Source: Escherichia coli O127:H6 str. E2348/69
Lineage (GTDB): Bacteria; Pseudomonadota; Gammaproteobacteria; Enterobacterales; Enterobacteriaceae
Strand: one strand, 5' to 3'
NCBI RefSeq assembly: GCF_000026545.1
Contig: NC_011603.1
DNA length: 64,000 nt
The stretch's first letter is position 1. Each line of letters opens with the position of its first letter. Shown one piece after another: positions 1-3,000 of the stretch. Made by a program: the position numbers.

Positions 1-3000
1 GCTCCCGCTCACGTATGTCTGTTGCCGGGAGCAGGCAGAGGACGGCGCCTGCTGGCATCTGCTGACGTCAGAAAAAGTGGCGAGTGCCGCCGATGCGCGA
101 CGTATCGTCAGCCATTACGAGCGACGCTGGCTGATAGAGGAATACCACAAGGCGTGGAAAAGTGGTGGTACATGTGTGGAATCGCTGCGAATGCAGACCC
201 GGGATAACCTCGAGCGCATGGTGGTTATCAAGGCGTTTATCGCGGTGCGGGTGCTGGGCCTGCGGCAGGGCGGTATCAGTGAAGAAACACAAAATGACAG
301 CTGTGAGAAAATACTGACGCCGACAGAGTGGAAACTGCTGTGGGTTAAGCTGGAAGGAAAACCGCTTCCGTCACAGATGCCGACACTGAAATGGGCCTGT
401 CTGAAACTGGCGAAACTGGGGCGATGGCATGACAGCAAACGCACCGGTCGCCCCGGTTGGGTAGTCATGTGGGATGGCTGGTTCAGACTTCAGGATATGG
501 TTGAGGGTTACCTGGTGATGAAGTCTCTTGATCAGGAGATCTGATCAAGAGACAGGTCATACAGAGGGCGCTTTTATTATTCTGCCAGGATCGCCCGCAG
601 CTCATCCTTGATCCGGTTCTGTCTGCGCACCTTTTCCAAGCGCGCCTGCGCATACTGTTCTTCTTCCTGTGTGATATGTTCTGTCACATAGCCTTCTGTA
701 TCATAGCGGCAGGCACCGGCTTTCATGGCGCCAAGATAGCTTTCTGAACGGGTGATGGCCTTCAGTGCCCTGCGCAGTTTTTTATGAGAGAGCGGGATAT
801 TCCGCTGAGACACCTCATCCAGTAAAACTTCCCGGATACCACAGGCAAGAAGCCGGGGCGTGTTACCGTCAAACAATCCCGGCCACCAGGGTTTCAGAGT
901 GTTCACCGCCTCATCCAGTGAGGGCAGCGTCAGATAAATGGACAGCGCCTGTCTGGCCTGTGCTTTCTTCGCCGCCAGCTCTGCTTCCCGGGCAGCCTTC
1001 TCCGCCAGTTTCTGCTTTTTCACCTTCCATTTTGGTGGCGTGGTGACATTGATGATGGTTTTCCGGCTCCGGGTCGGTGTTTCCCCTTCCGTTTTCCGTT
1101 TCAGTGTCAGTACCGGTCGTTTCTGCTCTGTCATGATTGCCCTGACCTTTGTGAAAATATGTCCTCCAGGTCGTTGAAACTACTCACTATGATATTAAGC
1201 TGACCTCAACGACCTCTGACATATTAATACCGACAATTAAAGATGTTTTTTAAACCATTGCGTCTGTACTGCCGCCACACGTTCAAAAAACGCGCCTTCA
1301 TAAATATCATAATGGCATGCGTCAGCTTCCTCGTATAATTCCTTAGTACCAGAAGCAACAGCATCATATAAGGCTCTTCCCTGTTCTGGTGGATTAACAC
1401 TATCCTGGCCGGCAATAACAACCAAAACTGGGCACTGTACTTTGGCTGCGCTCTCTGCCGGTTTATATTGCAACGTCTCCATAACCGTAAGGAAAGGTAT
1501 TTTTATATCCATTTCAGGATACTGACCTTTTACCTTCTCGAAGAATACCTTTGATTCATTATCACTCAGTACCCGGGTAACCCCCACAAACATCTCTTTC
1601 CCGGTATTTTTTTTCTTTTCTGCCATTTTATTCAGCGTGGACAGAAAAGAAGCTTTCTCCAGTTCATTCATTTCTCCGGTAACCAGAACCTCACCGTCAG
1701 CAAAAGCCAGCTGGCTGACAATACTTTTCACTCTTTTATCCTGCGCAGCTGCATTGAATACATGACACCCACCCAGCGATGTTCCCCATAATCCTATACG
1801 CTGATTATCAATACATACCTGCTTTTCTGCCCAATTGATAACTGAAATAATATCTTCGGTCTGCATTGCCGGAACCAGACGACCTCGTTCCCCTTCACTC
1901 TCACCGAATCCACGATAATCAAAAGTAATCGTTGCAAACCCGGCTTCTGTAAACGCATTCGCAAAGGAAGGCAGCAGAACATTCCGGATACCGCAAAATC
2001 CATGGCATAAGAGAATCAAAGGATGTTTTATATTTCCTTCCGGGACACGAAATGTCAGGGCAATACCTTCAGGGAGTTTGTGATCCGTAATTTTCATAAA
2101 TATCCTGTGTTATGTTGTTTATTAATAAGCAGAATCAGCGCCAGCATCATACCAGTCACACAGCCAGAACGCCCAGCACAGTAAGATGACAGGCATAGAA
2201 CGTCGGGAAAAAATCCCCGTACCAGAAACGGGGTAGTGATTTCCCTGTACAGGACACCAGACCAACAGTCAGCACCGTCATCACAAGGCCGGCCACCGCC
2301 GCTGCATCACTGGTGGCAAGGTTAAGCGCCGGAATAACAGCCAGCAGGCAGGCGACCAGCGCCAGACGTTCCATTCTGTCTTCCGCCCGGTACAGCCTGT
2401 GGCTGACTGCCAGCATCAGCAGCCCGGCAATGCCGTAACTGGTGCCGGAGAAAGGCAACCACATTGCCAGAAGCAACATGGTCTCTGCGGAACGCCACCA
2501 GGTGCGCGTTTCACACCATGTCAGCACCTGTGCCGCAACTGCAAAGGCAAACAGGATATTCCCCTCATACCAGGGAAAGCCGGCCAGATAATATGCGAAC
2601 TGGGCAATCACCGCCCATCCCCACAGCCGGTTAATGGCCTCCTGCCGGATATGCGTATGACGGGACAGATTCAGCCCCCACACCAGGGCAAACAGCGGAA
2701 AGGCCCCACGCCCGACCAGAAACATCCACGACTGGTCCAGATGCAGAATGCGGTTTGCATGGTCCAGAACCATCAGCACCAGTGCCACCGTTTTGATGAT
2801 ATCCCGCTGTCCGGGTGACCAGACCAGCAACGACTGCAACCAGGTATCGGTCCGGGCAGCCAGTGAATCATTACGTGTTGTGTTCGTGTTATCCGTTGTC
2901 ATCAGCGTTTATCTTCCTGTGTCAGTCTCCGCCCAGGGTTTTCTCTTTCTGCAGGTCACGAACCATATCCCGCTCCATCTGCTGCAGTCGCTCCTGCAGC

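Follow-up and report, generated by a model that had tools for sequence, protein, structure and literature searches.

Near its start the window, a 64,000-nt stretch from Escherichia coli O127:H6 str. E2348/69 (NC_011603.1), carries the distal end of an F-like tra region (Table 1). Positions 500–3000 are 100% identical to pMAR7 (NC_010862.1), an E. coli plasmid derived from pMAR2, the EAF plasmid of EPEC E2348/69. An ORF scan of the interval between traX and finO finds a reading frame of 286 codons (861 nt), uilS/orf286, which runs from ATG to TAA and is preceded by an AGGA Shine-Dalgarno sequence (2103–2106) placed 5 nt 5′ of the start codon. The earlier note, drawn up from the sequence alone, had proposed a gene for an esterase-type alpha/beta hydrolase here, co-oriented with the distal tra genes. 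Both statements stand: the ORF has exactly these limits and its product matches the Pfam model Abhydrolase_1, while traX, traI and finO, identified by Pfam/NCBIfam models, all lie on the minus strand as well. The traX-finO interval has a GC content of 42–46%, against 53–62% in finO and traX/traI. An alternative gene in the other frames or on the plus strand of the uilS interval was considered and rejected, since only short ORFs of 42–69 aa are present. Furthermore, an Rfam search of positions 1–3200 gave no family match, and none of the PADLOC anti-phage defence models matched the uilS protein at E ≤ 0.01.

Table 1. Genes and spacers at the uilS locus; positions count from the first nucleotide of the window.
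Feature	Positions	Strand	Description	Basis
finO	577..1134	-	Fertility inhibition RNA chaperone; downstream neighbour, intact, 185 aa	NCBIfam PRK13754, 347.6 bits; Pfam FinO_N and ProQ
uilS-finO spacer	1135..1236	-	102 nt; long hairpin	Sequence and RNA fold
uilS/orf286	1237..2097	-	286-aa cytoplasmic alpha/beta hydrolase, UilS family	ORF; Pfam Abhydrolase_1; NCBIfam NF047920
traX-uilS spacer	2098..2155	-	58 nt; Shine-Dalgarno sequence and candidate extended -10	Sequence
traX	2156..2902	-	Pilin acetylase; upstream neighbour, last tra gene	NCBIfam PRK13706, 529.7 bits
traI	2922..8213	-		Pfam/NCBIfam models

The same arrangement is found in the IncFII prototype R100 (NC_002134), in which traX (83756–84502), an ORF (84561–85421) and finO (85524–86084) follow one another. 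The R100 ORF (WP_000704523.1) agrees with the window gene in position, in length (861 nt, 286 aa) and in its flanking spacers of 58 and 102 bp. The two are 95% identical in both nucleotide and amino acid sequence and are thus only allelic variants; for instance, Cys111 of the window protein is a Gly in the R100 allele. RefSeq labels the identical pMAR2 protein (WP_000704512.1) "uilS" and gives the same name to the pO157 allele and to many other plasmid alleles, the product being entered as a UilS-family enzyme for the breakdown of acyl-homoserine-lactone signals. We take this 286-codon gene between traX and finO to be the "orf286" of R6-5/R100 in the literature of the early 1990s, which Cram et al. 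are said to have described at this place in both plasmids in 1991. In the searchable literature we found no study of the IncF traX-finO hydrolase gene or of the enzymology of a plasmid allele, and plasmid genome papers that list finO and traX pass over uilS.

The gene is also widespread. It occurs on 2,255 plasmids of PLSDB (1,953 from Escherichia, 149 from Klebsiella, 85 from Shigella and 56 from Salmonella), 1,758 of which are typed as conjugative and 497 as non-conjugative. Among the RefSeq complete E. coli genomes, 1,914 of 5,426 (~35%) contain it, and 2,026 of its 2,033 sites in these genomes are on plasmids. The traX-finO gene is therefore ordinary and already known: R100-type F-like plasmids carry it as an annotated accessory gene. 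The idea that it might be an unusual cargo gene is not supported, in view of the same gene and spacers in R100, the number of PLSDB carriers and the RefSeq name; the opposite case that the earlier note had itself allowed for, namely that the interval regularly contains this gene and that it has been described before, largely applies, as judged from R100 synteny, prevalence and RefSeq annotation.

The F plasmid differs from R100 at this point. The two ends of the circular record NC_002483 were joined and aligned to the window: homology ends 8 nt past the traX stop codon and restarts 1 nt before the finO ATG, leaving a traX-finO gap of about 45–54 nt in F compared with 1,012 nt in the window. 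The earlier note was therefore correct in stating that F has no such gene between traX and finO, only ~50 nt being present there. From these boundaries it also follows that the finO leader, including the ribosome-binding region, differs between the two plasmid types. Being absent from F and represented by 1,996 records in the complete E. coli genomes, against 3,875 for traX (3,998 for finO), uilS does not have the standing of a core F-type tra/trb gene; these counts indicate that about half of the traX-bearing replicons carry it.

The position of uilS could nevertheless mean that it encodes a cargo enzyme that works while the plasmid is transferred by conjugation, its gene being the final cistron of the tra operon. 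The gene has the orientation of traX and begins 58 nt past the traX stop codon. A promoter scan called no promoter-like site 5′ of uilS on its own strand, and the only terminator-like site nearby in a terminator scan lies inside traX, with no strong one between traX and uilS. Overall, none of the promoter or terminator calls around uilS is convincing in either direction, and the fold of the traX-uilS region is no more stable than that of shuffled sequence (z = -0.5). The gene may be transcribed together with the tra operon, as the earlier note had suggested. On the other hand, F and about half of the traX-bearing replicons conjugate without uilS, and plasmids typed as non-conjugative account for 497 of the 2,255 carriers. 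In pO157 the tra region is almost wholly lost, and what remains is a traI fragment, traX, an intact uilS and finO. In the O145 plasmid pRM9467-C1 uilS is likewise intact, but it is flanked by IS66, an integrase remnant and IS3 instead of traX and finO. These two plasmids argue against a transfer-specific role, and because of them co-transcription with tra cannot be the whole story. In addition, the traX-uilS spacer contains the sequence TGGTATGAT (2146–2154), which overlaps the traX end and which we infer to be a possible extended -10 element, although the promoter scan left it uncalled. This spacer is nearly invariant across R100, pO157 and the O145 plasmid; on pRM9467-C1, homology 5′ of uilS stops ~85 nt before the ATG, and the TGGTATGAT site falls within the conserved stretch. 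A conserved element of this kind also speaks against dependence on tra. A cargo enzyme of transfer is therefore improbable, and F-like plasmids carry uilS as an optional module, not as a transfer gene.

The encoded protein matches Abhydrolase_1 (PF00561) over residues 26–268 with E = 2.6e-33. Its other Pfam matches are generic, namely Hydrolase_4, Peptidase_S15 and a marginal DLH (PF01738). The DLH match, far weaker than that to Abhydrolase_1, reaches 23.8 bits for the whole protein against a cut-off of 21, with no single stretch passing, and covers residues 19–128 only. A much more specific assignment comes from the NCBIfam equivalog model NF047920 (lactonase_UilS), on which residues 2–286 align to profile positions 1–285 with 505 bits, the curated cut-off being 400 bits. 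The R100 protein scores 509 bits on this model, the pO157-type allele 504 and the Serratia marcescens protein P0122 519; with the latter at 519 bits, the plasmid protein lies well inside the UilS family. P0122 represents an S. marcescens cluster of 194 members that bears the name UilS family; it stands in here for the UilS of strain RM66262. It aligns with the window protein over 286 aa without gaps, with 64% identity and 78% positives. At 64% identity the substrate could still have shifted.

A scan of a genome collection with exact peptide patterns, aimed at the S. marcescens locus, gave 50 loci; the patterns were unmatched in S. marcescens, whose protein was recovered by a protein search seeded with the Serratia inhibens homologue. 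In 50 homologues (56–95% identity) the residues G105-x-S107-x-G109, Asp232, His262 and His32-Gly33 are invariant. Ser107 (within GTSLGG), Asp232 and His262 form a candidate catalytic triad, and His32-Gly33 corresponds to the HG oxyanion motif. The AlphaFold model (pLDDT 92.1, pTM 0.91) shows an alpha/beta hydrolase whose cap, at residues ~135–217, is helical. The UilS family has no solved structure; the nearest solved folds, at 22–26% identity, are 7qjm (TM 0.94), YcjY (5xb6; TM 0.88) and the thioesterase DcsB. In 7qjm (the Chloroflexus hydrolase '202') and YcjY the GxSxG nucleophile aligns with that of the window protein, whereas their substrates are different or unknown. By inspection, the N-terminus MKITDHKLPEGIALTF lacks a hydrophobic signal sequence. 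A metallo-beta-lactamase-fold lactonase of the AiiA/AiiB/AttM type, acting on N-acyl-homoserine lactones (AHLs), was considered and rejected, given the alpha/beta hydrolase fold and the absence of Lactamase_B among the Pfam matches at E ≤ 0.01.

Selection on the gene was estimated with the Nei-Gojobori method from the alleles of pMAR7, R100, pO157, the O145 plasmid and a Klebsiella pneumoniae plasmid. The dN/dS of uilS is 0.08–0.17 (dS up to 0.39), compared with 0.19–0.32 for traX, and the 286-codon frame is intact in every allele examined. Values of 0.08–0.17 imply purifying selection on the UilS protein and not merely on DNA or RNA. The plasmid protein is thus a UilS-family serine alpha/beta hydrolase that is both conserved and under selection.

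These data bear on another reading of the locus, according to which the uilS segment acts above all in cis: as an RNA leader it would boost or stabilise the finO mRNA, and the protein would be dispensable. Indeed, van Biesen and Frost reportedly observed in 1992 that orf286 of R6-5 raises finO mRNA in cis and so strengthens fertility inhibition. The uilS-finO spacer contains a stable hairpin (1156–1225); UUUUCAC and the ribosome-binding region of finO come after it. The predicted fold has a free energy of -31.5 kcal/mol (z = -3.64), and none of 200 shuffled sequences was as stable. The hairpin is identical in R100 and in one K. pneumoniae plasmid and is partly retained in pO157; F, with an unrelated finO leader, lacks it. 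This hairpin could be the element behind the reported boost of finO mRNA in cis. A function mainly as RNA is however very improbable, considering that the low dN/dS and the frame kept intact in all examined alleles reveal selection on the protein, and that the O145 plasmid retains the uilS ORF while the spacer and the adjacent finO are lost.

The activity of the UilS family is known from a 2024 study of S. marcescens. In strain RM66262, deletion of uilS abolishes the degradation of added C10-AHL and of endogenous and Pseudomonas aeruginosa AHLs; complementation restores it, and the activity, which is cell-associated and not secreted, is also observed in E. coli TOP10 (PMC11633161). Loss of uilS causes attenuation in a catheter model of UTI, and UilS is 97–100% identical among clinical strains (PMC11633161). 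Inactivation of C10-, 3-oxo-C12- and C4-AHL by expressing cells is on record for the S. marcescens enzyme only. The assays used whole-cell biosensors, opening of the lactone being inferred from 28% identity to AidA (PMC11633161). The S. marcescens enzyme and the window protein have the same length and the same triad, and both lack a signal peptide. Their genetic contexts differ: in S. marcescens uilS is chromosomal and lies beside genes for a LysR-type regulator and a molybdopterin oxidoreductase, whereas the window copy is plasmid-borne at the distal tra end. Likewise, regulation in Serratia involves LuxR, CpxR and urea, a context that is absent at the plasmid copy, whose hosts have no LuxI. 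Within 4 kb of uilS, no luxR was present in the S. marcescens loci or, by reading of the ORFs, in S. inhibens; the published "synteny" with luxR is therefore not reproduced at that distance. As regards chemistry, the window protein resembles AidA of Acinetobacter baumannii, which likewise uses that of a serine alpha/beta hydrolase. AidA, AidH and AiiM are absent among the PDB sequence matches of the window protein at E ≤ 1e-3.

A more general function has to be weighed against AHL degradation. The uilS product may be a carboxylesterase or thioesterase with a natural substrate other than an AHL, such as an aromatic or lipid ester or a gut lactone, in which case the loss of AHLs in Serratia would reflect promiscuity and the UilS label would be an over-annotation. 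In favour of this, the nearest folds (the polyester hydrolase 7qjm, YcjY, DcsB, and feruloyl and monoacylglycerol esterases) are not AHL lactonases, and the Pfam matches are of the generic kind listed above. Moreover, the plasmid hosts produce no AHLs, and the Serratia activity was seen as AHL loss in biosensor assays, not as lactone-opening chemistry. Nevertheless, the protein exceeds the curated equivalog cut-off of NF047920 by more than 100 bits; it shares 64% gapless identity with a protein that governs AHL levels, as seen on deletion and complementation, and that protein is active when expressed in E. coli. On this evidence a general esterase appears unlikely, even if it is the most serious competitor of AHL hydrolysis.

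We therefore favour, with fairly good confidence, the view that uilS is an accessory gene of R100-type plasmids, acquired as an AT-rich module of ~1 kb and separate from the transfer machinery, whose product is a cytoplasmic serine hydrolase that most likely inactivates AHLs. As to the reaction itself, family membership and the conserved residues tip the balance moderately towards hydrolysis by the plasmid UilS of AHLs entering the cytoplasm, via Ser107, His262 and Asp232. AHLs would diffuse into the cell and be hydrolytically inactivated by UilS: His262 and Asp232 would activate Ser107 for attack on the ester carbonyl, and the backbone of His32-Gly33 would form the oxyanion hole. As to the origin of the gene, the closest relatives of uilS outside F-like plasmids have ~70% identity, and those inspected are not in tra contexts; the same is true of a Salmonella Infantis paralogue with 67% identity. 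A further copy, in K. pneumoniae, has 70% identity, its neighbours being listed as ORF coordinates. The ~70% relatives outside tra contexts fit the view that a chromosomal gene of Enterobacterales was taken up as a ~1-kb module. The AT-rich module would thus have come from the chromosomal UilS family of Enterobacterales.

AHL lactonases encoded by conjugative plasmids are found also in Agrobacterium (AiiB and BlcC/AttM), a parallel to the presumed role of uilS; the Agrobacterium enzymes have the metallo-beta-lactamase fold. We know of no AHL input to F-like conjugation. In the Ti plasmid, lactonases modulate tra induction, whereas for F-like conjugation a review notes that evident signaling molecules are lacking (PMC4010749). 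AHL levels in the gut are reported to be low (PMC11619404).

What the plasmids may gain from such an enzyme must be considered in light of their hosts. E. coli, Shigella, Salmonella and Klebsiella do not synthesise AHLs themselves; they sense foreign ones through SdiA. More speculatively, the plasmid UilS may damp the response to foreign AHLs in these SdiA+ LuxI- hosts, or quench neighbouring producers.

As a discovery uilS matters little, as it is a standard annotated accessory gene. Given its carriage in ~35% of the complete E. coli genomes, including EPEC with pMAR2 and EHEC with pO157, a role of the IncF copy in AHL degradation or an effect on SdiA signalling, finO dosage or transfer, if true, would be moderately interesting for plasmid ecology and pathogen signalling. 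It is conceivable, if doubtful, that about half of the F-like plasmids supply an intracellular AHL degrader beside finO, which would blunt SdiA eavesdropping and may quench neighbours and couple fertility control to the quorum environment. If so, the blunting of SdiA would be relevant to EPEC and EHEC, uilS being intact on both pMAR2 and pO157, and, together with a linked cis effect on finO mRNA, an input from quorum signals would be new to F-like conjugation.

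The region bordering finO differs among the plasmids compared. In R100 and pO157, genes for an ANR-family regulator, a thermonuclease and hha stand beyond finO, whereas pMAR7 and pMAR2 lack these three genes. The window has instead the 3′ end of the transposase gene of ISEc13 (IS4 family), separated from the finO stop codon by 33 nt, and in pMAR7 and pMAR2 hok and repA2 come after ISEc13. A further difference is found between traI and traD, where the vapBC toxin-antitoxin pair (8274-8899) lies on the strand opposite to the tra genes. F has vapBC at the same place; in R100, however, the pair is absent and traI directly adjoins traD.

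Features located in the window, with strand and setting
Feature	Position	Strand	Setting
ISEc13 (IS4-family) transposase gene, 3′ end	77..544	plus	within 1-576
Long RNA hairpin (RNA fold)	1156-1225	minus	uilS-finO spacer
Terminator-like hairpin, CCCCGTTTCTGGTACGGGG then ATTTTTTCCC	2215-2233	minus	within traX 3′ end
vapB	8274..8501	plus	toxin-antitoxin pair with vapC
vapC	8501..8899	plus	toxin-antitoxin pair with vapB

Relatives of the window UilS were also observed in other assemblies. Two members of the family lie on scaffold2 of K. pneumoniae ATCC 13883 (NZ_KN046819.1, 107 kb; loci L005 and L045), roughly 10-20 kb from each other; one is 99% and the other 70% identical to the window protein. 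Copies with 76-100% identity are present in assemblies that bear the labels Collinsella, Clostridiales, Terrisporobacter, Acinetobacter idrijaensis and Bacillus (loci L006, L007, L046, L049, L051 and L052); their contigs are short (316-2,196 bp), and these copies look like E. coli plasmid contamination rather than true occurrences. Many singleton proteins of 322-450 aa (P0005, P0007-P0010, P0012-P0017, P0019, P0021, P0024 and P0029 in the search for relatives) match 83-100% (approximately) of the UilS query at 79-100% identity, joined to unrelated domains with TraI-, SSB- or methylase-like Pfam matches. These fusions are probably assembly or gene-calling chimeras originating from run-level assemblies. 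As for S. marcescens, synteny of uilS with luxR has been reported (PMC11633161); within 4 kb of uilS at the three loci analyzed (L055-L057), we found no adjacent luxR; its neighbours there are a convergently oriented gene for a LysR-family regulator and a molybdopterin oxidoreductase/cytochrome c gene.

Two hairpins were considered on the strand encoding uilS. The terminator-like one inside traX, which precedes the traX stop codon by about 60 nt, is mostly kept in R100 and pO157. RNA folding of this region is no better than that of shuffled sequences, and the hairpin may be a mere reflection of the coding sequence.

The long hairpin between uilS and finO has a predicted energy of -31.5 kcal/mol (z = -3.64), and none of 200 shuffles folds equally well. 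It is followed on its 3′ side by UUUUCAC and then by the finO start. Sequence comparison indicates that this hairpin is unchanged in R100 and in one K. pneumoniae plasmid and retained in part, with wobble changes, in pO157; F is devoid of it. The structure could act as a partial terminator, as a processing site or as a stabiliser of the finO mRNA.
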